Shown here: piece after piece, positions 9,167 to 62,647 of the stretch
Numbering within the stretch: the first letter of the stretch is position 1
How the letters are laid out: each line of letters starts with the position of its first letter
Source: an uncultured Chloroflexia bacterium
GTDB taxonomy: Bacteria > Chloroflexota > Dehalococcoidia > UBA2979
Assembly: GCA_963728205.1 (NCBI GenBank)
Contig: CAVSIV010000006.1
Coordinates: forward strand, 768,001-832,000
DNA: 64,000 nt
Direction of reading: 5' to 3'
Translations under genes and position numbers: made by a program
The notes under the pieces: generated by a model
Databases searched by the model: none
What the model was told of the DNA's origin: nothing
What the model saw: only the letters and a program-made list of their open reading frames with translations

Positions 9167-9231
9167 GAGCGCCCGGCGGCGCCGGCAGGGTCGGGGACGG
9201 GGAGTCGGACGGGGCTCGCGCCCCGGCCGAT

Positions 9232-9327
9232 ATCGGCGGCGTGTCTGCCGCCGCTTGACGGGCGTGTCGCGGCGCGTCCGGGGCGCTGCCGCGCCGTCCG
9301 TCGGCGGCATGTCTGCCGCCGCTGTGG
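9232..9327. repeat. Two REP-A copies in direct orientation (9232-9255, 9300-9323)
   Basis: atcggcggcgtgtctgccgccgcttgacg and gtcggcggcatgtctgccgccgctgtgg, between convergent genes. Confidence 0.9.
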
Positions 9328-9338
9328 GCGGCGCTTGC

Positions 9339-9456
9339 GCGCGGCCGGTACGCGTGCCGCCGGCGTGTGCGCGGCCGGTACGCGCGCCGCCGGCGTGTGC
9401 GCGGCCGGTACGCGCGCCGCCGGCGTGTGCGCGGCCGGTGCGCGCGCGGCCGGCGC
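9339..9456. repeat. 30-bp tandem repeat x4 (last copy degenerate)
   Basis: gcgcggccggtacgcgYgccgccggcgtgt at 9339, 9369, 9399 and 9429. Confidence 0.92.
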
Positions 9457-9459
9457 GCC

Positions 9460-15847: not shown

Positions 15848-16619
15848 GTCGTCAAGCGGCGGCAGCATGCCGCCGATGCCACCGACGGCGCGAGCCGTCG
15901 CGGTCACCGGCGCGTCCCGCAATGCCGCGGGGCCCCGAAACCCTCCGGGTGTCCGTCGCCCTCGCGCGGCCGACACTTCACCCCATGCCCCCAGCACCGG
16001 TCGACCGTACGTGGCTCCTGACGTGGACGACCTACGGCACCTGGCTGCCCGGCGACGCACGAGGTTCGAAGATCCGCGTGCGCGACGGCCGAGGCGCGCG
16101 TGCGACGGAGCTCGTTCCCGGGGGGACCCGCAACGCGAATGCGCTCCGAGACGCCGCGCGTGCACGTCTCAAGCAGGACCCGATCCGCTTGACGAGCAAG
16201 CAGGCGGAGGTGGCCGCCGACGCGATCCAAGAGGAGGCGGAGCGGAGAGGATGGACCGCGTTTGCGATCGCCGTGATGGCGAACCACGCACACGTCACCG
16301 TCGGCGTCGCGGGTGACCCCGCCGGCGGATCCCTCCTGCACGCGCTGAAGTCGCACGCCTCTCGCGTGCTCAACATGGAGTGGCGTCGGCCTGCCGCGGG
16401 GACGTGGTGGACTCAGGGAGGCTCGACGAGGGTGCTGAGGTCGGAACCGGCGGTGATCGCAGCCGTTCGATACGTCCGCGATCAGGAGTATCCGCTCGTG
16501 GTGCGGCTCGACACGCGCATGTGGGGTGGCGCCGTGTGAGGTCGTGTCGGGGCGCGGTCGACGGAGCGGCGGCCCTGGCCGCCGCTCGCATCGGCGGCAT
16601 GCTGCCGCCGCTTGACGAC
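15848..16619. mobile_element. REPtron 1: RAYT gene flanked by perfect 32-bp inverted REP-A variant arms
   Basis: gtcgtcaagcggcggcagcatgccgccgatgc (15848-15879) is the reverse complement of 16588-16619. Confidence 0.88.
15985..16539 (+). CDS. REP-associated tyrosine transposase (RAYT/TnpA-REP, HUH Y1)
   Basis: WLLTWTTYGTWLPGD.RG, HUH motif VMANHAHV, LK..ASR.LN, WWTQGGS, catalytic AAVRYV..Q. Confidence 0.88.
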   Translation: MPPAPVDRTWLLTWTTYGTWLPGDARGSKIRVRDGRGARATELVPGGTRNANALRDAARARLKQDPIRLTSKQAEVAADAIQEEAERRGWTAFAIAVMANHAHVTVGVAGDPAGGSLLHALKSHASRVLNMEWRRPAAGTWWTQGGSTRVLRSEPAVIAAVRYVRDQEYPLVVRLDTRMWGGAV

Positions 16620-24974: not shown

Positions 24975-25002
24975 CCGGCCACGCGCGATACGCGTCGCCC
25001 CG

Positions 25003-41309: not shown

Positions 41310-41339
41310 CCAACGCGCACAGCAGAGAGGACCCGATTC

Positions 41340-42271: not shown

Positions 42272-44323
42272 GTGCCGCGAGACCTGACGCTCGGCAACGG
42301 ACGGATGCTCGTCACTTTTGATTCGAGGTATTCCCTCAGCGACATCTACTACCCGCACATCGGTACTGAGAACCATGCGTATCAGCGGCACTCTCGGCTT
42401 GGTGTATGGGCAGATGGGGATTTCGCGTGGCTCGATGACTCGAGTTGGGAGCGCTCACTGCGTTACGCCGACCACACGCTTGTCACGCGCGTGGAGGCAC
42501 GCAACGCGCGCCTGGGTCTCCACCTTACGCTCGCCGACGCCGTGGACTTCGATCGCAATGTGCTATTGCGAAGATTCACCGTCATAAACACCTCCCCCAC
42601 CCCGGCCGAGGTGCGACTTTTCCTGCACCTCGACATCGCACTCGGTGGAAATTCTGTCGGAGATACGGTGTTCTATCATCCCGAATATGGCGCGCTCGTC
42701 GCCTACAAGAACGTGCACTATTTGTTGCTGAGCGGGCAGACCTCCGAGCGAACAGGACTCGATGGCTGGACAGCGTCTCCAAAGGGTGCCGGCTACGGAA
42801 GCTGGGTCGATGCCGAAGATGGCGCGCTGAACGGAACGCCACTAGCGTTCGGGGCGGTCGACTGCGTCGGCGAGCTGCGCCTGGGCACAGTGCTGCCCGA
42901 CCGCCCGACAGTCGCCCACGGATGGCTGGCAGCGGCGTCGAGCCTCGAGGATGTGGGAGAGCTCCACGCGAGCGTGCTCGGACGCGGCCCCGATAGTTAC
43001 ATCGAGCGGACACGGCACTACTGGCACGGTTGGGTCGCGAAGGAGGGTGAGCGACTCTCCGGACTCGAGATCTTGCCGAAAGCGGTCCAGGAGCTCTACG
43101 TACGAAGCCTGTTGCTCGCCCGCGCGCAGACAGATGCGGCCGGCGCGATCGTGGCGTCCCCGGACTCTGACATCTCCGGCGCGTACAGCCCGACCGGCAA
43201 GTCCGTGGCGCCGGTGACCGATCTGTTCCGCGGACACGAGAACTATGCGTACTGCTGGCCGCGTGACGGGTCGTTCGTGGCGATCGCCCTCAATGACGCC
43301 GGGTACGACCCCGCCGCCCGGCGCTTTCTTGAGTTCTGCGCGCGCAACATGAGCCAGAGCAGGGACGGTCGTCACGCATACATGTTGCAGAAGTACCTCT
43401 CGAACGGATCGGTGGCCAGCAACGTCATTGCCTGGATCGATGACCGGGGCGCTTCACGACTCCCCATCCAGGAGGACGAGACTGCACTTGTGCTCATCGC
43501 GCTACGCAACCACTACGAACGAACGCATGACTGGGAGTTCGTCGCATCGCTTTACCACGGGATGATGACGAAGATGGCGAATTTCCTGGCTGATTTCCGC
43601 GATCCCGCGACGGGACTGCCCCTCCCCAGCCAGGACCTCTGGGAGGAGGGCGAAGGCGTCCACGCGTTCACTGTGGCGACCGTCTGGCGGGCGTTGCGTG
43701 ACGTCGCGTATTTCACGGAGTTATTCAGCGAGCCGGCGCTGACTGAGCTGTACCTGCGGGCGGCAGACGAAATCAAGCGCGGCGTCGAGGAGCACATCTA
43801 TGATGACGCTGCAGGGCGGTTTGCCCGCGCTCTCCGTCGTGACCACCTCGGGCGCTACCAGCGCGACTCGACGGTCGATGCGAGTCTCTGGGCCCTTTCG
43901 TACTTTGGCATGTTCGACGCCGACGATCCGCGCATGGTCGCGACGATGGCAAGCGTGGAATCCACGCTTACAGTCGCCGGCGAGCATGGTGGGCTCGCAC
44001 GCTACGAGGGTGACCGCTACCAACAGCGGCAGCGGGCCGCCGACATGGGCGTCGCCGGCAACCCGTGGTTCTTGTGCACCCTCTGGCTCGCGCAGTACAA
44101 GGTGCAGCGCGCGAAGCACCTGGCTGATCTCGAGCCGGCGCTCCGCTTGATCGAGCGCGTGGCCGCCGGTGCACTCCCCAGCGGCGCCCTGCCGGAGCAG
44201 ATCGATCCGGCGTCCGGCGAGCCGGCGGGCGCCACGCCGCTGACATGGGCGCATGGGACCGTCGTCTTGACCGTACTTCAGTACCTTGCAACGAGGGCTG
44301 GCCTCGTGACCCGCTCGGAATGA
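42272..44323 (+). CDS. GH15 glucoamylase/trehalase-like glycoside hydrolase
   Basis: LGNGRMLV..YYPHIG.ENH, YAYCWPRDG, QEDETA, DLWEE, LPEQ..PLTWAH. Confidence 0.9.
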   Translation: MPRDLTLGNGRMLVTFDSRYSLSDIYYPHIGTENHAYQRHSRLGVWADGDFAWLDDSSWERSLRYADHTLVTRVEARNARLGLHLTLADAVDFDRNVLLRRFTVINTSPTPAEVRLFLHLDIALGGNSVGDTVFYHPEYGALVAYKNVHYLLLSGQTSERTGLDGWTASPKGAGYGSWVDAEDGALNGTPLAFGAVDCVGELRLGTVLPDRPTVAHGWLAAASSLEDVGELHASVLGRGPDSYIERTRHYWHGWVAKEGERLSGLEILPKAVQELYVRSLLLARAQTDAAGAIVASPDSDISGAYSPTGKSVAPVTDLFRGHENYAYCWPRDGSFVAIALNDAGYDPAARRFLEFCARNMSQSRDGRHAYMLQKYLSNGSVASNVIAWIDDRGASRLPIQEDETALVLIALRNHYERTHDWEFVASLYHGMMTKMANFLADFRDPATGLPLPSQDLWEEGEGVHAFTVATVWRALRDVAYFTELFSEPALTELYLRAADEIKRGVEEHIYDDAAGRFARALRRDHLGRYQRDSTVDASLWALSYFGMFDADDPRMVATMASVESTLTVAGEHGGLARYEGDRYQQRQRAADMGVAGNPWFLCTLWLAQYKVQRAKHLADLEPALRLIERVAAGALPSGALPEQIDPASGEPAGATPLTWAHGTVVLTVLQYLATRAGLVTRSE

Positions 44324-44420
44324 CGCCGGCACTCGAACGCGGTGGTTGCCCGGGCCCGGCAGGACCGGTGGGTCGAGGCGATGCCGCCGCGTAGCACGAT
44401 TGCCGCCGACAAGGGAAGCG

Positions 44421-46010
44421 ATGATGTCTTCACTCCGATGGTGGCAGTCGAGCATGATCTACCAGGTTCTCGCTTCGTCCTTCATGGACACCAATGGCGA
44501 CGGCGAAGGTGACCTCCAAGGGATAATCGAACGGCTGGACTATCTCCAGTGGCTGGGTGCCACGGCGATTTGGCTCACGCCGATCTATCCGTCGCCGATG
44601 GCCGACCTCGGCTACGACGTGAGTGACTACACCGGGGTCGGCTCCCGGTTCGGATCGCTCGAGGACTTCGATCGCCTCGTGAGCGACGCGCACGCACGCG
44701 GTATCAAGATCATCATGGATTGGGTCCCGAACCACACATCCGACCAGCATCCGTGGTTCGTAGAGTCACGCTCCAGCCGCGATAGTCGGCGACGTGACTG
44801 GTACATCTGGCGACCTGCGACAGGCACCAACTCCCCGCCAACCAACTGGCGCGCGGTGTTTGGCGGCAGCGCCTGGGAGTGGGACGAAGCGACTGGAGAG
44901 TTTTACTATCACTCGTTCCTCGAGTCGCAACCGGACTTGAATTGGCGGAACCCGGAGGTTCAAGCGGCTGTCTTGGACGCGATGCGGTTCTGGCTACGGA
45001 TCGGCGTCGACGGCTTTCGTGTCGATGCGGCCTCGTGGCTCATCAAGGATGAACAGTTCCGCGACAATCCGCCCAATCCAAACTATCACCCCGAGAGCGA
45101 TGGCCCGGATCAAGAAGTCATACCTCTGTACACATGGGACCAGCCGGGCGTGCATGAGGTATTAGCGAACATGCGCCGAGTGGTTGATGAGTTCGACGAT
45201 CGGCTGCTTGCGGGGGAACTGGTGTTACCCATCGAGAGCATGGTGCAGTACTACGGAAGACAGCATCCGGAATTGCACCTGCCGCTGAACATGCACCCGA
45301 TATGGGCAAACTGGAGCGCTGAGGACCTCGGCACAGTCATCGAAACCTACGAACGAGAGCGGCCCGCGAGCGGCTGGCCAACCTGGACGCTCAGTACTCA
45401 CGATTTCTCGCGTATCGCCTCGCGTCTTCCTGGCGACCAGACGCGGGTCGCAGCCATGCTACTGCTCACCCTGGGGGGAACGCCGACGCACTACTACGGC
45501 GAAGAGGTCGGGATGCGAGGAGTCGCCATCGCGCCGGAAGACGCCAAGGACCCCCAGGGACGGCGCATCGGTCGAAACCGCGATCCCGCGCGCACGCCGA
45601 TGCAGTGGGACGCGAGTCCTACGGCAGGATTCACGACGGGCGATCCATGGCTCCCCATCGGGGACGACGTGCGAGCAGCCAACGTAGCGGCGCAGAAAGA
45701 GGACCCGCACTCCCTGCTCACGCTCTATCGTCGCCTGATCGAGCTGCGCGCGCGACACCCGACGTTGGTGGCGGGTTCCCTTGAAGTTGTCTCGCGGCAG
45801 AATCCGCTGCTGGTCTACCGGCGTGCGAGCGAGGATGGGCACTATCTCGTCGTGCTCAACATGAGTGACGACCCGCAATCCTACGATATCTGGCAGGCTC
45901 GCGGCCAACTCTTGCTGTCAACGTTTCTGGACCGGCAAAACGAGGAGATCAGGGACAGGCTCGAGTTGCGAGCGAACGAGGGAATACTCGTGCGAATGTC
46001 ATACGTATAA
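44421..46010 (+). CDS. GH13 alpha-glucosidase
   Basis: WWQ..YQV..SFMDTNGDGEGDL, DWVPNHTS, QPDLNW, DGFRVDA, GE, STHD, RDPARTPMQW. Confidence 0.93.
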   Translation: MMSSLRWWQSSMIYQVLASSFMDTNGDGEGDLQGIIERLDYLQWLGATAIWLTPIYPSPMADLGYDVSDYTGVGSRFGSLEDFDRLVSDAHARGIKIIMDWVPNHTSDQHPWFVESRSSRDSRRRDWYIWRPATGTNSPPTNWRAVFGGSAWEWDEATGEFYYHSFLESQPDLNWRNPEVQAAVLDAMRFWLRIGVDGFRVDAASWLIKDEQFRDNPPNPNYHPESDGPDQEVIPLYTWDQPGVHEVLANMRRVVDEFDDRLLAGELVLPIESMVQYYGRQHPELHLPLNMHPIWANWSAEDLGTVIETYERERPASGWPTWTLSTHDFSRIASRLPGDQTRVAAMLLLTLGGTPTHYYGEEVGMRGVAIAPEDAKDPQGRRIGRNRDPARTPMQWDASPTAGFTTGDPWLPIGDDVRAANVAAQKEDPHSLLTLYRRLIELRARHPTLVAGSLEVVSRQNPLLVYRRASEDGHYLVVLNMSDDPQSYDIWQARGQLLLSTFLDRQNEEIRDRLELRANEGILVRMSYV

Positions 46011-46079
46011 CCCCGGAGCTCGTCGACGGTTGTCGACCCGCATCTGTTGAGACTCGGGCCGCGGGTGTCGCCACGAGAA

Positions 46080-46152
46080 CTCTCGGCGCGGCCCGGCAAA
46101 CGAAACCGCGATGAAGATCAGAATGATAACGAGGACCGTCCCAATACCGCAT
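46080..46152 (-). pseudogene. Frameshifted paralog of the 22-aa membrane peptide at 40174-40242
   Basis: Same GAGAGGAGA RBS and ATG, then an out-of-frame GIGTVLVIILIFIAV (5 nt missing after the ATG relative to the first copy). Confidence 0.55.
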
Positions 46153-46645
46153 GGGCTCTCTCCTCTCCCAGCGTTCATCTCGAAGAGAATTGCACGAATC
46201 GCATCCTGCAATAGTTCTTACGCGCTGGCCACGTGCGTCTGAATTCCATGCCAGATTTGTGCTGTGTCACCACAGGCGATAGGTGGCCCGCCAGGCTGAG
46301 CCGCGACTCGCCGGTCCTCGTCAGGCAGGACTCGCGGCGCGCGTCTTCGCGGACGATGCGGGTTGTTCGCCATCGCGCACTGCGGACCTCCCCGGCGTCG
46401 ACCCAGTCGCCTACGTGCGGCGCCACGGTGGCGCGGTCATGGCGGGGCGTGGACGCGCAACCACCTCAAGCACTTCGCGGTGTTCCTGCGGGCCCGCAGG
46501 CGCCGGACTGAGCGGTGATGCGTTTGCCCATACGTGGGCACCCGCGGGTCGCATGGCGAATCCCGGCCAAGGGGCGAGCCGACATTCGCCATGCGACCGG
46601 CGCTGCGGGCGGGCGGGCGCCGATCGAACTGAAGACGACGGGCAG

Positions 46646-46951
46646 CTAGCGCTTGTCGCGGATCGCCGAGATCAGCTCGCCTTTGCTCATCTTGCTGCGG
46701 CCGCCGACGTCGAGCTTCTTCGCGACGTTGTAGAGCTCGTCCTTCGTCCGGCTCTCGAGCTCCGCGTTCGGATTGCCGGTGCCCGACGTCGTCTTCTTGC
46801 CGCTCTTCGTGCGGCCTTCCTCGCGGCGGGCCTTGTTCACGGTGCGCGCCGCGATCTCCTCGGCGCGCGACGTCGAGCGGCCGCGATCCATCTGCGACTC
46901 TTTGATCGACTCGTACTTCTTTTCGTCTTTCTTCGACCATGCGCGTGGCAT
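46646..46951 (-). CDS. Small basic protein with C-terminal Rho-N-like HeH domain
   Basis: MPRAWSKKDEKKYESIKES..AEEIAARTVNK..TKDELYNVAKKLDVGGRSKMSKGELISAI. Confidence 0.8.
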   Translation of the reverse strand: MPRAWSKKDEKKYESIKESQMDRGRSTSRAEEIAARTVNKARREEGRTKSGKKTTSGTGNPNAELESRTKDELYNVAKKLDVGGRSKMSKGELISAIRDKR

Positions 46952-47086
46952 CAGAAGTACCTCCTGAAACCAACGTACCGGGTAGGCGAAAGGGACACGT
47001 TTGCAACGGGGAGGGGCGGGGGGACGGGGGGCGGAGGGGGGCGGACGGACGGGGGACTGGAGACGGACGGACGTGCGTCCGCCCTA

Positions 47087-48842: not shown

Positions 48843-49007
48843 TCGAGCGGCAGCTGGAAGGCTGCCGATCTCCCCAATCCCGTCGCTCACCGCGACGCTC
48901 TGCGGGCGCATCGGGGGCGGGCGGACGATGGGCATCGCCGTCCCCGGGGAAGCACGACGGCCCGCCTGTCGCGCACCGTGATCGGCAGCCTTCCAGCTGC
49001 CGCTCGA
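48843..49007. repeat. REP-B inverted doublet, perfect 28-bp arms
   Basis: tcgagcggcagctggaaggctgccgatc (48843-48870) and its reverse complement (48980-49007); preceded by a 7-bp duplication cgaatgt x2. Confidence 0.92.
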
Positions 49008-50412: not shown

Positions 50413-53400
50413 TCACTCCCCGCGGAGCAGGGGGAGGTGCATCGTGAACGTCGAGCCGACCGCGGGCTTGCTGCGCACCTCGATGCGCCCACCGTGCGCG
50501 GTCACGATCCCGTTCGCCAGGTAGAGGCCGAGGCCGAGCCCGTCGGACTGCGCCGAGCGCTGCGCCTGGTAGAAGCGCTCGAAGATGTGCTGCAGATCCC
50601 GGGACGGGATGCCCTCGCCGACGTCGGTCACCGCGACCGTCGCGTCGCCATCCGCGCGCCCGACGCGCACCGTCACCGGCGTGTCCTCCGGCGAGTGCTT
50701 GAGCGCGTTCGTCAGCAGGTTCTCGACGACCTCGATCAGCCGGTCGCCGTCGCCGCGCACCACGAGCCGCGACGCGCCCTCGCCCACGCCCTCCATTTCG
50801 ATCACGCGTCCCACGTAGGCCGCGCGCGCCAGCGCCACGGCCTGGTCCACCACGCCGCCGATCTCGACCGGCTCCAGCGTGAGATCGAGCGCGCCGCGCT
50901 CCAGGCGGCTGACGTCGAGCAGCTCGCCGACCATCCGCGCCATGCGCTGCGTCTGCTCGAACGCCTCCGTCGCGCTGCGGCGGACGGCGTCGCTGGCGCC
51001 CTCGCTGCGCAGCAGCCGCAGCAGCCGCTGCTCGTAGCCGAGCACCGCCGTCAGCGGCGTGCGCAGCTCGTGGCTCGCGACCGAGATCAGGTGCTCGCGC
51101 GCCCGCTGCGACATGCGCTCGCCGATGTCGCGGACGATCAGCAGGCCGGCCGCGCGACCCTCCGTCGTGATCGGCCGCCCGGTCGCGTCGAACCACCCGC
51201 GCGCCCCGTCCGGCGCGACCAGTCGGAAGTCCTGCGTGAACGTCTCGCCGCGGGCCAGCCGCGCGTACGGCGTGTCCGCGCTCGCCAGCGGCTCCTCGCG
51301 GTCGTCGCGGAACTCGAGCGTTCCGTCGTGCCCCATCCGCGCGAGCAGCGCGTCGAACGCCGGGTTCGACCGGGTCACCTCGCCCGACTCGTCCAGCACC
51401 GCGACGGCATCCGACATGCTCTCGAGGATCACCGCCAGTTCCGCGTGCGCCGTCTCCGCCGCCTCTCGCTGCTCGGCGAGCTCGCGGCTGCGCGCGTCCA
51501 GGTCGGCATTGCTCAGCTCGAGCTCCTCCACCGTCGCGCGCATCTCCTCGTTGACCGTCTCGAACTCCTCGTTGCTCGCCTGCAGCTCCTCGCTGTAGGT
51601 CTCGAGCTCCTCGTTCGCCGCCTCCGCCTGCGCGGTCGCCTCGCGCAGCGACTCCTCGAGGTTGGCGAGGTCGCTGTTCGCGGCGAGCAGCCGCTCGTTC
51701 GTCTCCGTGAGCCCACGCATCATCGCGCTGAGGCGCTCCATCTCCGCGCGCTGCTGCTCGAGCGCCTCGTCGGCGGCCATGCGCCGGCGCAGCGTGGTCG
51801 TCACGTCGACCACGCTGATCAGCACCATCGCCGGCTGACCGCCGCCCTCCGCGCCGTCGCCCCGCGGGACACACGAGATCTGGAGAAAGCGCTCCTCGCC
51901 CATCCCGACCTCGGCCGTGACCGTCGCCTCGATGGTCTGCAGCGCCTGCTCCTGGAACGCCGCGTCGATCGCCGATCGGAGGTCGTCCGTGGGCATGCTC
52001 GCGAGCAGGTGCAGCAGGTCCTCGCCGAGCGCCAGCCCGTGGATCCCGAGCAGCGTCCGCGCGGCGGCGTTGATGTGCCGGATGTCGTAGCGGCGGTCCA
52101 CCAGCAGCACGCCGACCGGCAGCCGCTGCACGACGTCGTCGTACTCGCCGCGCCGCCACGAGGGGCCGGCGGGATCGGACAGCGCGCCCCGCGGCAGCAC
52201 GGGCGACAGGCGTGACGACGCGTACGGCTGATCGCTCGCCGTCCGCGCCGCCCGGTCGAACGCGACGCGCTCCTCCGTCCGACGAAAGATGCGGAAGCGG
52301 CTCGCCTCCGCGGCGAAGGCCTCGGCCAGCGGCCGCACGTTCTCGGCGCTGCCCAGCACGAGGCAGCCGCCGGGGCGCAGCGAGAACGCCAGCGACTGCA
52401 GCACGCGGCGCTGCAGATCGGTCGTGAAGTACATCAGCACGTTGCGGCACAGCACCATGTCGATCTGCGGGAACGGGGCCCGCGCGCTGAGGTCGTGCTC
52501 GCCGAAGACGATGCGGTCGCGCACCGACTCGCGCACGTCGCACTCGCCGTCGGTCCCCGTGAAGTAGCGGTCGCGGACCGCCGGCTCCAGGTGCGCGAGC
52601 GCCGCCGCCGGGTAGACCCCGCGCCGCGCGAACTCGATCGACGGGGTGTCGACGTCGGTCGCGAAGATGCGCAGCGGCAGCTCGGGGTCGAGCTCGAGCG
52701 TGAGGATGGCGAGCGAGTAGGCCTCCTCGCCCGTCGCGCAGCCCGCGGACCACAGGCGGAGCGGCTCGCCGCGCTCGCGCGCGCGCGTCATGAGCCCGGG
52801 CAGGACGCGCTCGCGCAGGTAGTCGAAGGCCTCCGGGTCGCGGAAGAACTGCGTGACCTTGATCAGCAGGCCGCGGACAAGCTGCTCTTCCTCGTCGGGG
52901 TGGTCGCGCAGGTGCTCGCGGTATGCCGCCAGGTCGCGGGCGCCGACGGCGAGCATGCGCCGCTGCAGGCGACGCGTGACGGTCCCCTCGCGGTAGTCGC
53001 TGAAGTCGAGCCCGCGCCGCTCGCGCACGTCGGCGAGCAGGCCGCGCATGCCGTCCTCGTCCGCAGCGCGCGTCGGCAGGCCGACCTCCGTCACAATCGC
53101 CTGCAGCAGCGGGCCGATGTCGTCCAGCTCCGCGACGAAGTCAATCGTCGGCGGCTGCAGCGAGCGCGGCATGCCCGGGAACGCCGCCGTCGCCGGGTTC
53201 TGCACGACGACCGTGCCGCCGGCCTCGTGGACGAGCCGCGCGCCGGCCGCGCCGTCGGAGCCGGTGCCGGTGAGCACGACGGCGACCAGCCGCTCGCCGA
53301 ACACCTCGGCGGCGCTCGCGAACAGCGCGTCCACCGACGGTGTCGACGGCGCGGAGGCCGGCCGCAGCGCGACCACGTGATCGGTGATCGCGATGTCGCG

Positions 53401-53652
53401 GTTGGAGGGGACGACGAAGATCTCGCCGTCGACGAGCGAGCACTCGTCGGAGACCATGCGCACGGGCAGCGAGGTGTGGCGCTCGAGGATCTCCTGCAGG
53501 CGGCTCGGCCGCCCGGGAGAGAGATGCTGCGCGATGACGACGGCCGCCGGCAGATCGATCGGCACGGTCGCCACCACGCGCGAGAGGGCTTCGATGCCTC
53601 CCGCCGATGCGCCGATGACCACGAGATGTGACGAGGCCGCAGCCGCCGTCAT
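50413..53652 (-). CDS. CheB-CheR-PAS-histidine kinase fusion
   Basis: CheB triad GASAGG / QHLSP / GSDGA; CheR VTQFFRDP, WSAGCATGEEAYS, LCRNVLMYF; coiled coil EELQASNEEFETVNEE; ASHELRTPL kinase. Confidence 0.93.
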   Translation of the reverse strand: MTAAAASSHLVVIGASAGGIEALSRVVATVPIDLPAAVVIAQHLSPGRPSRLQEILERHTSLPVRMVSDECSLVDGEIFVVPSNRDIAITDHVVALRPASAPSTPSVDALFASAAEVFGERLVAVVLTGTGSDGAAGARLVHEAGGTVVVQNPATAAFPGMPRSLQPPTIDFVAELDDIGPLLQAIVTEVGLPTRAADEDGMRGLLADVRERRGLDFSDYREGTVTRRLQRRMLAVGARDLAAYREHLRDHPDEEEQLVRGLLIKVTQFFRDPEAFDYLRERVLPGLMTRARERGEPLRLWSAGCATGEEAYSLAILTLELDPELPLRIFATDVDTPSIEFARRGVYPAAALAHLEPAVRDRYFTGTDGECDVRESVRDRIVFGEHDLSARAPFPQIDMVLCRNVLMYFTTDLQRRVLQSLAFSLRPGGCLVLGSAENVRPLAEAFAAEASRFRIFRRTEERVAFDRAARTASDQPYASSRLSPVLPRGALSDPAGPSWRRGEYDDVVQRLPVGVLLVDRRYDIRHINAAARTLLGIHGLALGEDLLHLLASMPTDDLRSAIDAAFQEQALQTIEATVTAEVGMGEERFLQISCVPRGDGAEGGGQPAMVLISVVDVTTTLRRRMAADEALEQQRAEMERLSAMMRGLTETNERLLAANSDLANLEESLREATAQAEAANEELETYSEELQASNEEFETVNEEMRATVEELELSNADLDARSRELAEQREAAETAHAELAVILESMSDAVAVLDESGEVTRSNPAFDALLARMGHDGTLEFRDDREEPLASADTPYARLARGETFTQDFRLVAPDGARGWFDATGRPITTEGRAAGLLIVRDIGERMSQRAREHLISVASHELRTPLTAVLGYEQRLLRLLRSEGASDAVRRSATEAFEQTQRMARMVGELLDVSRLERGALDLTLEPVEIGGVVDQAVALARAAYVGRVIEMEGVGEGASRLVVRGDGDRLIEVVENLLTNALKHSPEDTPVTVRVGRADGDATVAVTDVGEGIPSRDLQHIFERFYQAQRSAQSDGLGLGLYLANGIVTAHGGRIEVRSKPAVGSTFTMHLPLLRGE

Positions 53653-53782
53653 GCCATGCAATCCCCCCACCGCCGGAGGCGAGGATACGCCCCGCGCGAG
53701 GCTGCGACGGCAATGTGATGCGCGCGCGGCAGGCGGCGGCGGGGACGGCGCCAATCTCAACGCGGCCTTCCGGCCGCGACCT

Positions 53783-54660
53783 GTCGGCGGCATGTCTGCC
53801 GCCGCTTTGGTCGGCGGCGTGTCTGCCGCCGCTTTGGTCGGCGGCATGTCTGCCGCCGCTTTGGTCGGCGGCATGTCTGCCGCCGCTTTGGTCGGCGGCG
53901 TGTCTGCCGCCGCTTTGGTCGGCGGCATGTCTGCCGCCGCTTTGGTCGGCGGCATGTCTGCCGCCGCTTTGGTCGGCGGCGTGTCTGCCGCCGCTTTGGT
54001 CGGCGGCATGTCTGCCGCCGCTTTGGTCGGCGGCATGTCTGCCGCCGCTTTGGTCGGCGGCATGTCTGCCGCCGCTTTGGTCGGCGGCGTGTCTGCCGCC
54101 GCTTTGGTCGGCGGCGTGTCTGCCGCCGCTTTGGTCGGCGGCGTGTCTGCCGCCGCTTTGGTCGGCGGCGTGTCTGCCGCCGCTTTGGTCGGCGGCGTGT
54201 CTGCCGCCGCTTTGGTCGGCGGCGTGTCTGCCGCCGCTTTGGTCGGCGGCGTGTCTGCCGCCGCTTTGGTCGGCGGCGTGTCTGCCGCCGCTTTGGTCGG
54301 CGGCATGTCTGCCGCCGCTTTGGTCGGCGGCGTGTCTGCCGCCGCTTTGGTCGGCGGCGTGTCTGCCGCCGCTTTGGTCGGCGGCGTGTCTGCCGCCGCT
54401 TTGGTCGGCGGCGTGTCTGCCGCCGCTTTGGTCGGCGGCGTGTCTGCCGCCGCTTTGGTCGGCGGCATGTCTGCCGCCGCTTTGGTCGGCGGCGTGTCTG
54501 CCGCCGCTTTGGTCGGCGGCATGTCTGCCGCCGCTTTGGTCGGCGGCGTGTCTGCCGCCGCGTTGGTCGGCGGCGTGTCTGCCGCCGCTTTGGTCGGCGG
54601 CGTGTCTGCCGCCGCTTTGGTCGGCGGCATGTCTGCCGCCGCGCTGGTCGGCGGTGTGTC
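53783..54660. repeat. 27-bp tandem array of REP-A hairpins, 32 full units plus a partial unit
   Basis: Unit gtcggcggcRtgtctgccgccgctttg; 32x27=864 bp from 53783 to 54646; the partial unit runs into the SNF2 stop codon; no unique spacers. Confidence 0.97.
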
Positions 54661-57600
54661 AGTCCGCGGCAAACAGCTCCTCGACGTCGGACTCGCTCAG
54701 GTCGAACGCGGCGCCGGCCTCCGCGTCGAAGATGCCGGCGGCGAGGTGGCGCTTGCGGTCCTTCAGCGACTCGATCTTCTCCTCGATCGAGTCGGCGGCG
54801 ACGAGCCGGTAGACGAAGACGGGCTTGTCCTGGCCGATGCGGTGCGCGCGGTTCGTCGCCTGCTCCTCGGCGGCCGGGTTCCACCACGGGTCGTAGTGGA
54901 TCACCGTGTCGGCGGCGGTGAGGTTCAGGCCTACGCCGCCGGCCTTCAGGCTGACCAGGAACACCGGCACCGCGCCCGACTGGAACGCGCGGATCGCCGC
55001 CTCGCGGTCGCGCGTGTCGCCCGTGAGCAGCGCGTACCGCAGGCCGACCGCGTCGAGCGCCTCCTCGATCAGCGCCAGCATCGAGGTGAACTGCGAGAAC
55101 ACGAGCACGCGCCGGCCGTCCTCGACGAGATCCGGCAGCATCTCCAGCAGCCGGTCGAGCTTCGCCGATCGCGCGCGCGTCGCCTTCGCCGTCTCCAGCC
55201 GCAGCAGCCGCGGGTCGCAGCAGGCCTGGCGCATCTTCAGCAGCGCGTCGAGCACCACGATGTGGCTGCGCGCGAGGCCGTGCCCGGCGATCGCCCGGCG
55301 CACGCGCTCGTCCATCGCGAGGCGGACGCTCTCGTAGAGGTCGCGCTGCGCCGGCGCCATCTCCACGCGCTCCACCATCTCGGTGTTCGGCGGCAGCTCG
55401 CTCGGCGACCTCGCCCTTCGTGCGGCGCAGCAGGAACGGCCGCAGCCGCCGCGCGAGCCGGCGGCGACGGTCGACGTCGCCGTCGCGCTCGATCGGGCGC
55501 GCGCCACTGCTGGTTGAAGTGCTGGCGGTCCCCGAGGAAGCCCGGCGAGACGAACGCGAAGAGCGACCAGAGGTCGCCGAGGTGGTTCTCCATCGGCGTG
55601 CCGGTGAGGCAGAAGCGCTGGCGGGCCCGCAGCTCGCGCGCCGCCCGCGACACCGCCGCGTTCGGGTTCTTGATCGTCTGCGCCTCGTCCAGCACCACCG
55701 CGTGCCACTCACGCGCGCCCAGCACCGCCGCGTCGCGCGACAGCAGCGGGTAGGTGGTGACGACGACGTCGTGCTCGGCGATCGCGTCGAAGCGCGCGGC
55801 GCGGTCGGGGCCGTGCAGCACGAGCACGCGCAGCCCGGGCGCGAAGCGCGCCGCCTCGTCGCGCCACACCGACGCCACGCTCGTCGGCGCCACGATCAGC
55901 GACGGCCGGTCCGCGCGACCGCACTCCCGCTCGATCGCCAGGTGCGCCAGCGTCTGGACGGTCTTCCCCAGCCCCATGTCGTCCGCGAGCACCCCGCCGA
56001 GCCCCGCCGCCCCGAGCAGCTGGAGCCAGTCGACCCCGCGCGCCTGGTAGTCGCGGAGCGTCGCCCCGAACCACGCCGGCGGCTCGACGTGCGGGATCCC
56101 GTCCGCGCCGCGCAGCGTCGCGCCGAGCGACCGCAGCCGCTCGCCGCCCTGCCACTCGACGCCGGCGCCGGCCTCCTCCTCCGCCAGCGCCAGCTCGGCG
56201 GCGCTGCGCGTCGAGAGCCGCACCGTGCCGTCGCCGGCGTCCACCAGCCCGGCGTCGAACAGCTCGCGCAGCGCGCGGGCGATCGCCCACAGCCGGCGCG
56301 CCGGCAGCGCGAGCGTGCGGCCGTCGGGCAGCGGCACGAAGCTCAGGGCGTCGTCCTCGGGCGGGTCGCCGGCCAGCAGCGCGTCGAAGCGGCGCGTCGC
56401 GATCAGCTGCACCAGCGGCTCGGTCAGATCCACGCGCTCGCCGTCGACCACGACGCCCAGGTCGAGGTCGAACCAGTCGATGCCCGTCGTCTCGTCGAGG
56501 CGCGCCTCGAGCGGCCCGTCCGCGCGGACGACGTGCACCGGGAAGTCGGGCGCGACCGCGACCTCCCACCCCTCCGCGCGGAGGACCGGCGCGTCCCGCG
56601 CGAGGAAGCGCAGCCAGGCGTCATCGCCGCCGCCGCGGACGGTCATGTCCCCGGGCTCGACGCCCGCGGCCGCGTACGGTCCGGGCTCGGGAAGCGGCTG
56701 CAGGCCGAGGCGGCGCAGGCGCTGGTGCGCCGCGCGCTCGGCCGCCGTGTCGCGCTCGACCTCGATCATGCGCTGGTCGCGCACGAAGCGATCGCGGTCG
56801 CGGCTCTCGTGCGCCGGGATCGTCGCCGCGCCGTACCGGAACGCCAGGCGCGCGACCGGGACCGGGCCGGGACGCCACGCCGCCCACGCGGGGGCGAACG
56901 GCGGCGGCTGCACCGTCAGCAGCAGCTGCGGCGCCGGCGGTCCCGCGACGTGCTCCATCGGCTGCAGCGGCGGCGGCTGCAGCGCGGCCAGCGTCGGCAG
57001 CCGGGCGGCCAGCGCCGAGCCCAGGAGCTGCTCGCGTCCGGCCGGCACCGGCGGCGCCGCGAAGAGCGCCTCCGCGACGCGCGGCGAGAGCCCGGTGTCG
57101 AGCGGCCCCGCCAGCCCGGCGCCCGCGTCGACGTACCACGGCGGCGCGAGGCACACCGCCTCGACGCGCGGCCGCGCCGTCTCCGCCGCAGCGCGGCGCG
57201 TGCCGTGCGCGCCGCGGTCAGTGGCAGCGTCCCCGCCGCGGTCATCGCCGGCCGGCTCGCCGTCGTGCGCGCCGCGCGCATCGCCGGCCGGCTCGCCGTC
57301 GACGACGTCGAACTCCAGGTGCTGCGCCGCGTCGTCGCCCAGCCGCCAGCGCGGCCGCGCCGTCCGCGGCTCGCCGCGGGCGAGCGCGGGGCCGGCCAGG
57401 TCGCCCCACCGCGCGCGCCCCGTCGCGAGGATCGCGTCGAGCACGCGCGCGCCCTCCTCGCCGGCGAGTGCGATCGCGTCGGTGCCGTAGTAGACGCGGC
57501 GCGCGATCCCGTCGAGCCCGGCGAGGATGGCGTGATCCGAGCGCCGCAGGAACCGCGCCGGCGTGCCCTGGACCGCCTGCACCGGGCGGTAGGGCGTGAC

Positions 57601-58257
57601 GCGATCGGAGAACGTCCCGTCCTTGAGCAGCCGCACCGACAGCGGCCGCACGACGAGCCGCGGGGTGCCGCGCGGCGCGGGCCGCCGCAGCTCGAGGACG
57701 TAGATCAGCCGCTGCCGGATCTCCGGCGGGTACGCCTCGCCCTCGGACGCGGACGCCGCCGTGACCTCGTCGAGCCAGGCCGCGAGGTCCGCGCCCAGCG
57801 CCGGCGTCTCGCGGCGCGCCGCCGGCTCGCGGTCGGCCGCGTCGTCCGCCGGCTGCTCGCCGGACGGCGGCGGCGTTCGCGGCGGGACGGCACTCGCGTC
57901 GGGCTCCCCCGCGTCCCGGATCGACGCCAGCAGCGTCGCCGCGATGTGCTTGCAGTCGAGCTGCATCGGGCAGGTGCACGACCCGCGAATCAGCCACCCG
58001 CCGACGCGCCGCGGCCGCACCACGATCGAGACGTTGTACGGCGCCCGCCGGCTGCCCTGCACCTCCGCGTCGACGAACGTCGCGTCGTCGACGTCCTTCA
58101 CCCGGACCCGCGAGACGCGCCCGTCGCGCCGGTAGGCTTCGCCGCGCTCGACGGCCGACCGCGGCAGCGCGCGCTCCACGTCCTCGCGCGACAGCGGCGC
58201 GGGGCCGGAGGGCGGCGTGTCACGGCGCGAGTACCCGCGGCGGCGAGCGGGGGTCAT
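54659..58257 (-). CDS. SWIM zinc-finger SNF2-family helicase/ATPase (frameshifts near 55500 and 55400)
   Basis: [15 protein letters not shown]; [58 protein letters not shown]. Confidence 0.92.
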
Positions 58258-58351
58258 CAGGCACAGTCCGGAGCAGGGGCGGCGAGTCGGATCCCGGGCA
58301 TACACGAGCAGCCTAGCGGATCGGCGCGCGGCGGGATGAAGAGGCGGCCGG

Positions 58352-58762
58352 CTACTCCGGCAACAGCCGGTACGGCCGTCCGTCGCGCGACCGCAGCGTA
58401 GAGAAGTGGCGGCGGTCGAGCGTGACGATCAACTCCGTCCCAAGCCGATCGGCGAGCACGGCGACGGATGCGTCGGTGCCACCCAGCGGGAAATCCCCGG
58501 AACGCTCCACGAGAGCCGCGATCATCTCCCACTCACCGGACGCCGGCGGCTCGACCTCGAGGCGCGCCAGACCGCGCAGGAATGCCCCCTCCACCGATGG
58601 ACCGAGTCGCCGCCCGACGAGGTACGTGACCTCGGCGATGACCAGCGCCGGGACGACGAGGTCGAGGTCCGCGCGCTGCAGCACCTCGACACAACGGCGG
58701 TGATCCTGGTCGTCCGCGTCGACCGCCGCGTAGAGCGGTCCGGCATCAACGACCGCGATCAT
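58352..58762 (-). CDS. vapC: PIN-domain toxin (VapC)
   Basis: VVDAGPLYA..D.DH, VIAEV, GGTDAS, TLDRRHF; overlaps the antitoxin. Confidence 0.9.
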   Translation of the reverse strand: MIAVVDAGPLYAAVDADDQDHRRCVEVLQRADLDLVVPALVIAEVTYLVGRRLGPSVEGAFLRGLARLEVEPPASGEWEMIAALVERSGDFPLGGTDASVAVLADRLGTELIVTLDRRHFSTLRSRDGRPYRLLPE

Positions 58763-59105: not shown

Positions 59106-59210
59106 CGGCGGGCCTGAAGCCCGCCGCGCGCCCAGGCGGCGGCGGATACGCCGCCGACGGGTCGCGGCCAGAAGGCCGCGTCGATGTCGGCGGCGTGTCT
59201 GCCGCCGCTT
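59106..59210. repeat. Hairpin cggcgggc-ctgaa-gcccgccg followed by a REP-A inverted doublet (59135-59158 / 59186-59210)
   Basis: Direct reading; the right arm overlaps the sortase stop codon. Confidence 0.85.
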
Positions 59211-60039
59211 AGCTCACGCGCTCCGCGCGCACGACCACGCGGTCGCTGTACGAGTGCGTCTGGAAGTCGAAGTCGCCGCCGCAGGTGTAGAGCGTGATCG
59301 AGTCGACCGACACGTCGCTGCTCCAGATCGACGCCCAGTCGTTGTAGGACTCGCTCAGCTTCTTCGTCCACGCCACCGCGTACTTCAGCTGCTGGCCGTT
59401 GTAGTCGACCTCGATGATGTCGCCGGGCGACAGCAGCCGCAGGCCCGAGAAGATGCCGGGGCCGCGGTAGTACGAGTTGTCCGCGTAGGGCACGTGCGCC
59501 GCGTAGTCGACGTGGCCCGAGAAGATCGCGTTGCCGCCGGAGCCCGGCGCGCCGCCCATGCCGGGGAAGAGGCGCAGGTCGTACCAGGTCACCTCGACCG
59601 GGTTGTAGGGCGCCGTCATCACCGCGTCGGAGCCGACCAGTGCCGACCGCACCGGGCCGTCCACCCCGAGCACCGGGATCTTGAGGCGCGCGTAGCCGGC
59701 GTCGGGCGGGTCGCCGAACTGCTTCACCAGCGCGTCGAGCGTCGTGATCGTGCCCGGGTCCTGCGTGGCGTCGGCCGCCGGCGTGGCGCTGCCGGTCCCC
59801 GACGGGGTCGCCGTCCCGGTCCCGCCCGCCGTGGCCGACGGGCTGCCCGACGCCGCCGGCGTCGCGGTCGCCGTGCGGACGCTCACGCCGTCGGCGGAGC
59901 CCTTCGAGCACGCCGCCGCGAGCAGCGCGACGGCCGCGAGCGCCGCCAGCGCCGCGACGAGCGGCAGGCGGCCAAGACGACGGCGAAGGGGGGCGGGGTC
60001 GGTGTCCTGCGCATCCTGCCGCGGCGTGACGGGCGCCAT
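59209..60039 (-). CDS. Class F sortase, probable lipoprotein
   Basis: Lipobox-like LAAAC; LKIP.LGVD, VTWY, PG..GNAIFSGHVD (His), ITLYTCGG.F (Cys), DRVVVRA (Arg). Confidence 0.9.
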   Translation of the reverse strand: MAPVTPRQDAQDTDPAPLRRRLGRLPLVAALAALAAVALLAAACSKGSADGVSVRTATATPAASGSPSATAGGTGTATPSGTGSATPAADATQDPGTITTLDALVKQFGDPPDAGYARLKIPVLGVDGPVRSALVGSDAVMTAPYNPVEVTWYDLRLFPGMGGAPGSGGNAIFSGHVDYAAHVPYADNSYYRGPGIFSGLRLLSPGDIIEVDYNGQQLKYAVAWTKKLSESYNDWASIWSSDVSVDSITLYTCGGDFDFQTHSYSDRVVVRAERVS

Positions 60040-60216
60040 CGACGATCCTCCTGTGCGACGCCCCCGCCACCCGGCGACCGGGTCATCGACCGGGCGCACG
60101 GAGCGGCGCGCGGGTCGGCTGGTCGATGCCCTCGGGGCGACTCTATCGGGTCTATCGGGAATACGGTCGTTCCATCCTAGCGCGGGTCGCGGGTTGGTTC
60201 ACCGGGCGCCTGCGCC

Positions 60217-60333
60217 TCCGCCCACAGCGGCGGCAGACATGCCGCCGACAGGCCGCGGGCGTCGGCCCGCGTCCGGTGCGCGCCTCGCGGCCCGCAGTCC
60301 GTCGGCGGCATGTCTGCCGCCGCTGTGGGCGGA
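60217..60333. repeat. REP-A inverted doublet, perfect 33-bp arms
   Basis: tccgcccacagcggcggcagacatgccgccgac (60217-60249) and its reverse complement (60301-60333). Confidence 0.94.
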
Positions 60334-60346
60334 AGCGCTGCCTGCA

Positions 60347-61060
60347 TCACCGCGCCACGAACACGATCGTCCCGGCGAGCACCATCTGCGACGGGTACGC
60401 CGCGTCGAACGCCGCGCGCGCGAACGGGGGCGCCCCCGGGATCAGCACGTTCGCCTTGCCGCCGTCGAACGTCGTCACCGACATCCCGCCGGCGGCCAGC
60501 GTCGCCGCGGCGAGCTGAGCGACCGTGCCGCCCGTCCACACCGCGGGGTTGATCCCGCGCGCGGTGAGCGGCCGGTCGAACGTCGCCAGGCCGCCCGAGG
60601 CGGGCAGGTACACCGTGACCGTCGCCGGCGCCGACGTCACGCCGCCGTTCGAGAAGGCGTAGGTGAAGGCGTCGAGCCCCGCCGCCCCGACGTTCGGCGT
60701 GTAGTCGACGCTCGCCGTGCACACCACCAGCACCGGCGGCTGCCCCGTCGGCGGCTGCGCCGGCACCGTGCAGCTCGGCGCGCCCATGCCCGAGAGCGTG
60801 CCGAAGTGCGGACCGGCGACGATGGCGAACGCCGGGTGGTCGGCGGGCACGGCCGAGTCGGAGCCGTCGAACGTGACCGTCACCGGCTGCGGCGGCGTCG
60901 TGGACGCGATGGTCAGCTGGGCGTCGTGAGCGACCGGCGCGGGCGTCGGGGTGACGGCGAGGGCGGCGGACGGCCCGCCGGCGCCCGCGAGCAGCAGCAG
61001 CGCCGCGACCACCGCGCCGGCCGCGAGGGCGATTCGGATGACGGGGAAGCCGTGCCGCAC
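60347..61060 (-). CDS. Secreted protein: signal peptide, Big_9-like Ig domain, conserved ~75-aa C-terminal domain
   Basis: FAIVAGPHFGTL..YTPN...G.DAFTY..SNGG.TS.PATVTV; C-terminus TFDRPLT..G.N.A.W.GGTV..PGAPPF..AF. Confidence 0.78.
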   Translation of the reverse strand: MRHGFPVIRIALAAGAVVAALLLLAGAGGPSAALAVTPTPAPVAHDAQLTIASTTPPQPVTVTFDGSDSAVPADHPAFAIVAGPHFGTLSGMGAPSCTVPAQPPTGQPPVLVVCTASVDYTPNVGAAGLDAFTYAFSNGGVTSAPATVTVYLPASGGLATFDRPLTARGINPAVWTGGTVAQLAAATLAAGGMSVTTFDGGKANVLIPGAPPFARAAFDAAYPSQMVLAGTIVFVAR

Positions 61061-61167
61061 CTGGACCTCCGCCCGTGCAGGTCGAACCGTATCAGCCTAA
61101 CGCGCGAACCGGGCGATCCGTTCCGGCGGGCACGGGATTGGGTGGGCGGCCCGGCCGCCGGTCGCCG

Positions 61168-61700: not shown

Positions 61701-62141
61701 GTGGCGCCGGCACGGGGACTCGTCTTCCTCGACGCGAGCGTCCTCGTCGCCGCCGCGCACTCCCCCACCGGCGGCTCCGCCGCCGCGCTGCTGGTGTGCG
61801 GAGGGCCGCGCTTTCGCGGCGCTGTCACGATGCGCGTGCTCGAGGAGGCGCGCCTGAACGTCGCCGAGAAGTTCCCCGGCGGGGATCTCGCGCGGTTCTA
61901 CCAGCAGCTCGCGGCGCTCGAGCCGGAGATCGTTCCGCCGCCGCCGGCGGAACTCCTCGCCGAGTGCGTTCCGCTGACCACGGAGAAGGACGCCCACGTG
62001 CTCGCCGGCGCGCTCGGCTGCCGCGCCGCGTACCTGCTCACGCTCGACCGCCGCCACCTGCTGACGCGCGCGGTGGGCGAGGCGGCCCTGTCGACGCGCG
62101 TGCTCACGCCGGGCACGTTTCTGCAGGAGCTGCTGGCGTAA
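61701..62141 (+). CDS. PIN-domain toxin
   Basis: VFLDASVLVAA..SPTG, VLEEARLN, KDAHVLA.A, LLTLDRRH, LTPG.F. Confidence 0.88.
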   Translation: MAPARGLVFLDASVLVAAAHSPTGGSAAALLVCGGPRFRGAVTMRVLEEARLNVAEKFPGGDLARFYQQLAALEPEIVPPPPAELLAECVPLTTEKDAHVLAGALGCRAAYLLTLDRRHLLTRAVGEAALSTRVLTPGTFLQELLA

Positions 62142-62152
62142 GCCCGGCGCCG

Positions 62153-62619
62153 CACAGCGGCGGCAGACATGACGCCGGCAGGTGCACGGCGCGAGCCGCG
62201 CGGTGGCCTGCGGTTGCGTCGGCGGCGGACGCCGCCCGTCTGTCGGCGGCATGTCTGCCGCCGCTGTGGACGGAACGGTGACCGCCGCGGCGGCCTGCGG
62301 TTGCGTCGGTGGCGGACGCCGTCCGTCTGTCGGCGGCATGTCTGCCGCCGCTGTGGACGGAACGGTGACCGCCGCGGTGGCCTGCGGTTGCGTCGGTGGC
62401 GGACGCCGCCCGTCTGTCGGCGGCATGTCTGCCGCCGCTTTGGACGGAACGGTGACCGCCGCGGCGGCCTGCGGTTGCGCCGGCGGCGGACGCCGCCCGT
62501 CTGTCGGCGGCATGTCTGCCGCCGCTGTGGACGGAACGATGACCGCCGCGGCCGCCTGCGGTTGCGTCGGTGGCGGACGCCGTCCGTCTGTCGGCGGCAC
62601 ATGTCTGCCGCCGCTGTGG
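62153..62619. repeat. REP-A left arm (62153-62180) followed by an 87-bp tandem array x~5, each unit containing a REP-A
   Basis: REP starts at 62242, 62329, 62416, 62503 and 62590 (period 87). Confidence 0.95.
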
Positions 62620-62647
62620 GCGGCCGCCGCGGCGCGCGTGCCGGCAG

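Follow-up and report, generated by a model that had tools for sequence, protein, structure and literature searches.

A REP-derived minisatellite in an uncultured Chloroflexia bacterium that may have grown from one arm of an old doublet

Introduction

Systems in which a transposase accompanies sequences of the repetitive extragenic palindromic (REP) type are described in published passages on REP/REPIN-RAYT of Pseudomonas fluorescens SBW25 (PMC3116915) and on REP/bacterial interspersed mosaic elements (BIME) with TnpA-REP of Escherichia coli (PMC3333891). We analyzed a 64,000-nucleotide stretch of DNA from an uncultured Chloroflexia bacterium (contig CAVSIV010000006.1, positions 768,001 to 832,000; below, the window), which carries an array of 27-nt units; judged by sequence, what is repeated there is the conserved module of REP-A, our name for a dispersed family of REPs. 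As far as those passages go, the described systems and REP-A have in common a short GC-rich imperfect palindrome with conserved flanks, extragenic copies that mostly form inverted pairs (for REP-A, 22 outside the array within the 64 kb), and a Y1 HUH transposase gene bracketed by inverted copies. REP-A differs in that it has no GTAG tag, its doublet spacers are unrelated except in one pair, its transposase falls short of the curated score cut-offs for RAYT and Y1_Tnp, and the host belongs to the Chloroflexota.

For SBW25, the passages on tandem REP arrays report up to 12 REPs at 72-112-bp spacing, with flanking DNA included (PMC3116915, Bertels and Rainey, 2011). Both those arrays and the 27-nt array consist of same-orientation, evenly spaced and ordered REP copies; here, however, 32 units of 27 bp abut without flanking DNA, while the 87-bp and 68-bp arrays of the window come nearer to the SBW25 type. 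The copy number of BIME-2 in E. coli varies between strains according to Ton-Hoang et al. (2012; PMC3333891), where a transposase-based amplification model is also given. In both cases REP-containing units are multiplied in tandem at particular loci, but the units of BIME-2, as presented there, are inverted REP pairs, whereas here a single arm is repeated head-to-tail. Free of flanking DNA and unusually rich in copies, the 27-nt array is an extreme or limiting case of known tandem REP amplification.

The CGTC/TGTC-tagged REP superfamily, as its text describes it (Di Nocera et al., 2013), resembles REP-A in the YGTC tag beside the stem, the 4-nt loop and the short tail, as well as in tags-inward dimers with variable, structured spacers and in REPs “reiterated in tandem.” The same text gives its members 8-9-bp stems starting with A/T pairs, mostly tags-outward dimers, negligible head-to-tail dimers and no linked transposase. 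In contrast, REP-A has a 7-bp, all-GC-footed stem (starting with GG), six of seven intact inverted pairs with tags inward, a long head-to-tail array and a linked transposase. On stem and dimer arrangement, and by that text description, REP-A is set apart from this superfamily. As to the Chloroflexota, one text mention of GTAG repeats in the phylum was encountered (PMC3733652), and a literature search on RAYT together with Chloroflexi returned, among the ten listed of 53 matches, no title on such a system.

We consider it very probable that the 27-nt array is the amplified arm of a doublet belonging to a REP/RAYT system. With restrained confidence we favor the fuller statement that it is a minisatellite without coding function, which arose from a REP when one arm of an old doublet was multiplied, chiefly through slippage or unequal exchange.

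Results

The 27-nt Array

Tandem Repeats Finder places the array at 53783-54660, with a period of 27, 32.5 copies, 97% matches, 0% indels and a score of 1644. A first-pass annotation, made from the sequence letters, had described 32 units; cut in register, the array indeed yields 32 full units followed by a partial 33rd (Table 1). All 32 have the same orientation, and the repeated unit coincides exactly with the REP-A module, spacer and flanking DNA being absent. The first unit begins abruptly with its tag, and a partial unit of 12-16 nt closes the array. A BIME-2 type cluster of alternating inverted REP pairs is ruled out by the uniform orientation. A CRISPR array is likewise ruled out, as the units abut and the 60-bp inter-REP stretches of the 87-bp array (see below) are copies of one another.

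The units fall into 19 of G-type, 11 of A-type and two tail variants near the right end; A-type and G-type are told apart by a single base, in the top pair of the stem. Their order along the array is AGAAGAAGAA, then A, then long G runs. A three-unit period extends across units 1-10 (block AGA-AGA-AGA), and A-type units cluster toward the spacer (8 among the first 11 units vs. 4 among the last 21; Fisher p = 0.006). With head-to-tail units in the range of 10-100 bp, the array is built like a minisatellite and may be a variable-number tandem repeat (VNTR). Bacterial VNTRs and minisatellites have head-to-tail units of tens of bases, a homogenized interior, diverged edges and block-wise variant patterns; the unit here differs from theirs in being a mobile-element hairpin that has a transposase system of its own.

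Assembly is difficult where almost identical repeats of 27 bp extend over 880 bp, and two frame breaks in the adjacent helicase gene may mark indel errors, so we considered whether the array could be an assembly artifact, the true locus having far fewer, or an unknown number of, units. The variant pattern, however, is ordered and non-random and the edge units are diverged, as in real arrays, the other arrays of the window show the same biology, and the source contig measures 1.87 Mb; such an artifact is very improbable.

The array is non-coding. The codon-position GC signal of the kinase gene downstream ends at 53640, and the Pfam CheB domain begins at residue 11 if the ATG at 53652 is taken as the start. 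A stop-free 27-bp unit at 72% GC is expected to leave all six frames open, as they are across the array. The minus frame in phase with CheB-CheR, compared with 1.84 billion representative sequences, showed no specific relatives; 545 matches at E ≤ 0.001 had at most 53% identity, and the five inspected were unrelated low-complexity repeats. For the plus frame, a word-indexed search restricted to proteins of 158-504 aa gave no match; neither search implies that such arrays are lacking elsewhere. That the repeat is translated, lengthening the CheB-CheR kinase at its N-terminus by repeats of nine residues, is scarcely credible. The frame is in phase and stop-free, open from 54672 to the CheB start, and the A-type units contain ATG codons, but the coding signal is over by 53640, the CheB domain of the short form already starts at residue 11, each of the six frames is open anyway, and what the frame matches is low-complexity sequence at no more than 53% identity.

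The REP-A Family

The REP-A module spans about 27-31 nt and consists of a YGTC tag, an 18-nt hairpin (7-bp stem, 4-nt loop TGTC) and a GCTKTGG tail, with a mean column identity of 90% across 19 aligned copies. As is required of a REP, it is a short (20-40-nt) imperfect palindrome with conserved flanking nucleotides. When up to two mismatches are allowed, the window has 51 occurrences of the 18-nt core, where shuffled sequence would give 0.13; a literature search for the exact core did not find it. A covariance model, built from the aligned copies and reporting down to E ≤ 1, gave 54 matches of at least 27 bits in the window, namely the 32 array units and 22 copies elsewhere (11 loci). On 1.26 Mb from 80 unrelated loci, which served as negative control, no match reached 20 bits (best 18.7).

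All REP-A loci are intergenic, lying between open reading frames (ORFs) with coding signal, and several abut stop codons. Seven intact inverted pairs were found, six with tags inward and one with tags outward, in addition to the decayed pair at the array. The predicted fold pairs the left arm with an array unit, giving the REPIN-type feature of two inverted REPs with a short spacer in one joint hairpin. Doublet spacers range from 8 to 112 nt and differ in sequence; a shared spacer occurs only between the array locus at 53 kb and the doublet at 59 kb. As the spacers of the other doublets are unrelated, doublet-level copying is suggested for this pair alone.

Kinship of the Array Locus and the Doublet at 59 kb

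According to the first-pass annotation, the sequence ahead of the array matches the reverse complement of the spacer of the doublet at 59 kb. The two 32-mers on which this was based differ at two positions, and the alignment of 53725-53812 with the reverse complement of 59130-59217 is ungapped, in support of the claim; in forward orientation gaps are required and the loop is mismatched. Identity amounts to 24/26 over hairpin and linker, 15/18 over the core of the amplified arm and 14/18 over the opposite arm (56/69 overall), and the flanks of the two loci beyond the doublet are unrelated. A 21-nt hairpin pattern (with one Y) occurs at zero mismatches twice in the window, at 53760-53780 (+) and 59161-59181 (-). 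The amplified arm corresponds to the 59138 (minus) arm, the two loci being mutually inverted. The G-type stem variant, present in 19-20 of the 32 array units, is found in only three of the 19 non-array copies, which are the one at 9235 and both arms at 59 kb.

A decayed left arm had been placed at 53731-53755. It is present, can be narrowed to 53735-53752 and has four mismatches to the consensus. Outside the known copies, 25 other matches with four mismatches occur per 128,000 strand positions, or about 2e-4 per position, so that an arm in exact register with its counterpart at 59 kb is unlikely to have arisen by chance.

The view of the array as an amplified doublet arm is supported at this locus, where the unit is one arm and an unamplified paralog with the same spacer hairpin lies 5.4 kb away, but it does not extend to the array at 9233-9360, which has no convincing opposite arm. 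From these paralogs within one genome we infer that the two loci may be before-and-after snapshots of the amplification of an arm.

Hairpins Preceding REP-A Copies

A strong hairpin lies in the 30 nt ahead of the tag in all 20 REP-A copies examined. Its mean energy is -9.7 kcal/mol, whereas about 3,000 random 30-mers from the window average -4.9 (p = 5e-10) and the 3′ flanks -6.9. The 20 copies are not independent: the 87-bp array supplies four of them, and a single hairpin can belong to both arms of a pair. The foot of the hairpin is usually about 4 nt from the tag, and the sequences differ from locus to locus. Doublets with long spacers have one hairpin per arm; in the doublet with the 8-nt spacer the arms serve each other. 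That each copy follows a hairpin peculiar to its locus speaks for single arms, and against doublets, as what is placed in this lineage.

These hairpins (20 of 20 copies, the sequence varying by locus) also lend themselves to a history in which there never was a doublet: a single REP-A would have landed beside an existing GC hairpin and then been amplified, the left arm being one more GC-rich hairpin and the likeness to the 59-kb locus reflecting a small hairpin family. A related TTCC-loop hairpin is tandemly repeated at 15736-15840, and the covariance model missed the left arm. We nevertheless regard this history as improbable, for the left arm is ungapped and in exact register with the 59-kb arm, at about 2e-4 per position by chance, and it retains the REP stem GGCGGC...GCC.

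RAYT-Like Transposase Genes

A RAYT-like gene of the window is bracketed by inverted copies of the same element that makes up the array (Table 1), which bears out the label “REP” given in the first-pass annotation. Its product is likely the predicted cognate enzyme of REP-A. It matches NCBIfam REP_Tyr_transpos at E = 4e-8 (33.2 bits, below the cut-off of 80) and Pfam Y1_Tnp at 21.7 bits (below the cut-off of 23); by sequence it is a divergent branch and not the equivalog. Relatives at E ≤ 0.001 numbered 797, one of them at 68% identity. Many are named “REP element-mobilizing transposase RayT” by the Joint Genome Institute, and those named by NCBI come from Planctomycetes. Across 32 aligned sequences there is no variation at H101 and H103 (HUH), at Y163 or at Q167.

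The AlphaFold model of the protein has a pLDDT of 92.4. All 30 matches at E ≤ 0.001 in a fold search of the PDB were IS200/IS605 transposases or the E. coli RAYT 4er8, to which the model aligns with a root-mean-square deviation of 3.8 over 162 columns; a sequence search of the PDB reached E = 0.22 at best, to IS200-type transposases. A second RAYT-like gene, 44% identical in its product, is bracketed by inverted repeats of another sequence family, REP-B.

Class 3 TnpA-Y1 proteins, as far as they are described in the text of Quentin et al. (2018; PMC6006769), resemble the RAYT-like proteins in an extended conserved N-terminus and a Y...Q motif. The homologs named there are mainly from Planctomycetes, with several paralogs per genome and genes flanked by atypical multi-copy hairpins, which is again alike. 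The hairpins listed there, however, show a CnGA foot and stems that are weak and bulged, and their sequences are neither REP-A nor REP-B. The resemblance, drawn from the description, is a lead only.

Other Tandem Arrays of the Window

The layout of the 27-nt locus, an opposite arm followed by a multiplied arm, had also been claimed for a second array with 87-bp units, and rightly so: a minus arm with one mismatch is followed by five plus copies, the fifth with a 2-nt loop insertion. The minus arm comes directly after a PIN-domain gene, whose stop lies 17 nt ahead of the 18-nt core and 9 nt ahead of the full module (62139-62176). An opposite arm was expected at the other REP-A arrays as well. 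The 87-bp array has one, but none convincing was found for 9233-9360, where the best candidate (9170-9188, minus strand) reached 12.7 bits (E = 0.27).

At this third cluster, the degenerate 30-bp units (3.9 of them, 9337-9458) are 14/18 REP-A-like and in plus orientation, and the intergenic sequence from 9.2 to 9.46 kb comprises six same-orientation REP-like units of mixed period. Directly upstream lies an ORF with an Imm5-like immunity-protein domain (8480-9166, plus strand; Pfam PF21805, E = 8e-37). A survey of strand polarity, proposed at the outset, gave the plus-oriented copy as the amplified one in three of three REP-A arrays; three are too few, and their transcription contexts differ.

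Among the tandem arrays with a Tandem Repeats Finder score of at least 100, seven of eight lie within 50 bp of a REP, compared with 6% of the window. One of the arrays, at 15736-15840, repeats TTCC-loop hairpins in tandem with a period of 22/44 bp; it stands 10 bp away from the left REP-A copy of the RAYT-like gene, and one of its units matches the spacer hairpin of the 53-kb and 59-kb loci at 18 of 21 positions. Around the second RAYT-like gene, ten 10-bp units (25887-25985) prolong the 3′ tail of the right REP-B, the tail of the left REP-B being single, again a one-sided amplification, and a 29-bp × 3.8 array of REP-B-like pieces (25722-25829) lies between this gene and the right REP-B.

Genomic Setting

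The window is chromosomal, carrying gyrA, ndk, tsaB, mnmA and rsfS as well as three tRNAs, and has 72.2% G+C over its whole length. Wherever they bear a name, the best non-self matches of its MnmA (80-73% identity) are Chloroflexi or Dehalococcoidia MAGs, which places the organism in the Chloroflexota; a protein atlas had given only a hint of its taxonomy. GC skew is weakly negative across it, origin and terminus both lying outside. The 27-nt array sits between two minus-strand genes, a helicase gene upstream and a kinase gene downstream. Two one-base frame breaks occur in the helicase gene within about 120 nt, at about 55380-55520 on the minus strand (near 55.4-55.5 kb), and a conserved motif near them is readable in a third frame only, indicating either a pseudogene or assembly indel errors.

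To find the orthologous locus, genome contigs were searched with the whole CheB-CheR-kinase protein as query. None of the 80 loci returned was an ortholog; their matches were confined to kinase residues of about 650-1079, with 24-42% identity, in unrelated phyla. In a plasmid collection the array was unmatched, only the coding part of the helicase gene matching two records at 80-85%. At gathering threshold Rfam gave the three tRNAs in the window and nothing on the array, and a scan of 53400-54900 gave 0 promoters and 0 terminators.

Elsewhere in the window, G+C falls to 64-69% at about 36000-47000, compared with about 73% outside it, and few ORFs there pass a codon-position test; a REP-A-like match there, at 44020-44046, is weak (20.2 bits). 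At 59209-61096 (minus strand) an ORF with a sortase domain and one with a bacterial Ig-like domain (Big_9) stand in tandem, with REP-A doublets after, between and before them, and the stop of the sortase-domain gene falls within a REP tail (59189-59211).

Table 1. Coordinates of the array, of related REP elements and of associated genes in the window.
Feature	Position	Strand	Remarks
32 full head-to-tail 27-nt REP-A units	53783..54646	+	tag GTC, hairpin GGCGGC-R-TGTC-TGCCGCC (18 nt), tail GCTTTG
Partial, diverged 33rd unit	54647..54662	+	contains helicase stop (TCA 54659-54661 = TGA on minus strand)
Spacer hairpin, 7-bp stem, TTCC loop	53761..53778	.	4 nt ahead of first unit; common to 59-kb doublet
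Decayed opposite (left) arm	53735..53752	-	14/18 identical to counterpart arm, 6/7 stem pairs
Unamplified paralogous doublet	59138..59206		arms 59138-59155 (-) and 59189-59206 (+); 33-nt spacer with same hairpin; both arms G-type
Second array, 87-bp units	62159..62623		arm 62159-62176 (-), then five + copies (array 62199-62623); same layout as 27-nt locus
Third REP-A cluster	9230..9458	+	two copies 68 bp apart (9233-9360), then 30-bp × 3.9 array
REP-A tags-inward pairs	12221/12283, 14283/14309, 59138/59189, 60229/60304, 61172/61302, 62159/62245	inverted	intact
REP-A tags-outward pair	47092/47140	inverted	intact
REP-A head-to-tail pair	9235/9303	+	68 bp apart
RAYT-like Y1 (HUH) transposase gene, 184 aa	15985..16539	+	bracketed by inverted REP-A copies
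REP-A copy, left of RAYT-like gene	15850..15879	-	29.1 bits; 1-nt loop deletion
REP-A copy, right of RAYT-like gene	16588..16617	+	29.1 bits; 1-nt loop deletion
Second RAYT-like gene	25095-25697	-	44% identical to 15985-16539 product
REP-B inverted repeats, 48 nt, 96% complementary	24995-25042 / 25852-25899	inverted	bracket 25095-25697 gene
REP-B pair elsewhere	48845-48870 / 48980-49005
CheB-CheR-PAS-histidine kinase gene, 1079 aa	50413..53652	-	downstream of array; ATG at 53652
SWIM/SNF2-type helicase gene	54659..58428	-	upstream of array; stop inside partial last unit

Discussion

The history that we favor would begin with an old tags-inward doublet at 53.7 kb, composed of arm, spacer hairpin and arm and paralogous to the doublet at 59.1 kb. 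One arm would have multiplied head-to-tail to about 32 copies, and the other would have decayed. The seed may have been a short direct repeat, formed by the start of the unit and a similar 12-16 nt after the array; a sharp start together with a 12-16-nt partial end is the signature of duplication between short direct repeats. The array would then have grown in blocks of one to three units, for the most part through slippage during replication or unequal exchange among units, and hairpin-forming repeats would be expected to favor slippage. The three-unit period, the long G runs and the clustering of the A-type favor slippage or unequal exchange in blocks, and this mode of growth fits the other tandem arrays abutting REPs in the window. 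On balance, slippage or unequal exchange, rather than a transposase, seems to have done the amplifying.

Alternatively, a RAYT-like transposase could have built the array, with a fixed cut per unit and either strand transfer or rolling-circle copying of an excised 27-nt circle. An enzyme acting only on the recognized strand and orientation would explain the one-sided growth, and a gene of the cognate type is present in the window with catalytic motifs and fold intact. The unit is the conserved module without flanking DNA, the plus copy is the amplified one in all three arrays, and the long identical G-type runs fit repeated copying of one unit. A CT dinucleotide stands ahead of GTC in 11 of the 19 aligned copies, with one CT per tail. 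E. coli TnpA-REP is reported to cleave at C|T and to carry out strand transfer in vitro, and two models of amplification have been published for it; transposase-catalyzed addition of units or rolling-circle copying has been proposed for E. coli BIMEs (PMC3333891). Against this, the activity of the enzyme is only predicted, from sequence and model; the AGA-AGA-AGA block fits slippage or exchange of several units better than addition of single ones; three arrays are too few for a polarity; and non-REP units (the 10-bp and 44-bp arrays) have also been amplified beside REPs, so that a REP-specific enzyme is not required. We judge amplification by the transposase unlikely, though by no means negligible.

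A variant of this explanation starts from the hairpins ahead of the tags. The transposase may place REP-A about 7 nt 3′ of any GC-rich hairpin in single-stranded DNA; each insertion would create the next target, and one strand-specific arm would grow into a spacer-less array while its partner decays. If this were so, the 27-nt period would be the minimal mobile unit, with a single cleavage site per unit, and doublets would be two independent landings flanking one hairpin and not elements copied whole. We put this forward as a rather doubtful idea.

Several points weigh against growth of the array by slippage from one arm of a doublet. Slippage leaves unexplained why the plus copy was amplified in three of three REP-A arrays and why the unit borders coincide with those of the conserved module; plus polarity and module-exact borders would follow naturally from a strand-specific enzyme. 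The association between arrays and REPs is partly trivial, since both are intergenic and three of the seven arrays are themselves REPs. The left arm on its own goes unreported by the covariance model at E ≤ 1; it resembles a REP-stem-like hairpin inside the 87-bp unit and may be no more than a hairpin that never was an arm. If the frame breaks of the helicase gene are indel errors, the unit count and the A/G calls of the array would need checking. Finally, a single genome underlies all that is concluded on the number of units, on its variability and on the ancestral state.

How REPs multiply is unsettled, as doublets acting as units, transposase-catalyzed addition and plain slippage each have support in print. 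Within 64 kb, the window holds an unamplified doublet, an amplified paralog of it, two further arrays with units of other sizes, and the gene of the presumed enzyme together with a paralog that has its own REP family. The 27-nt array shows that amplification can act on the conserved module by itself. The locus may serve as a ready-made variable-number marker and offers a substrate set for testing a divergent RAYT, and REP/RAYT biology would extend to the Chloroflexota.

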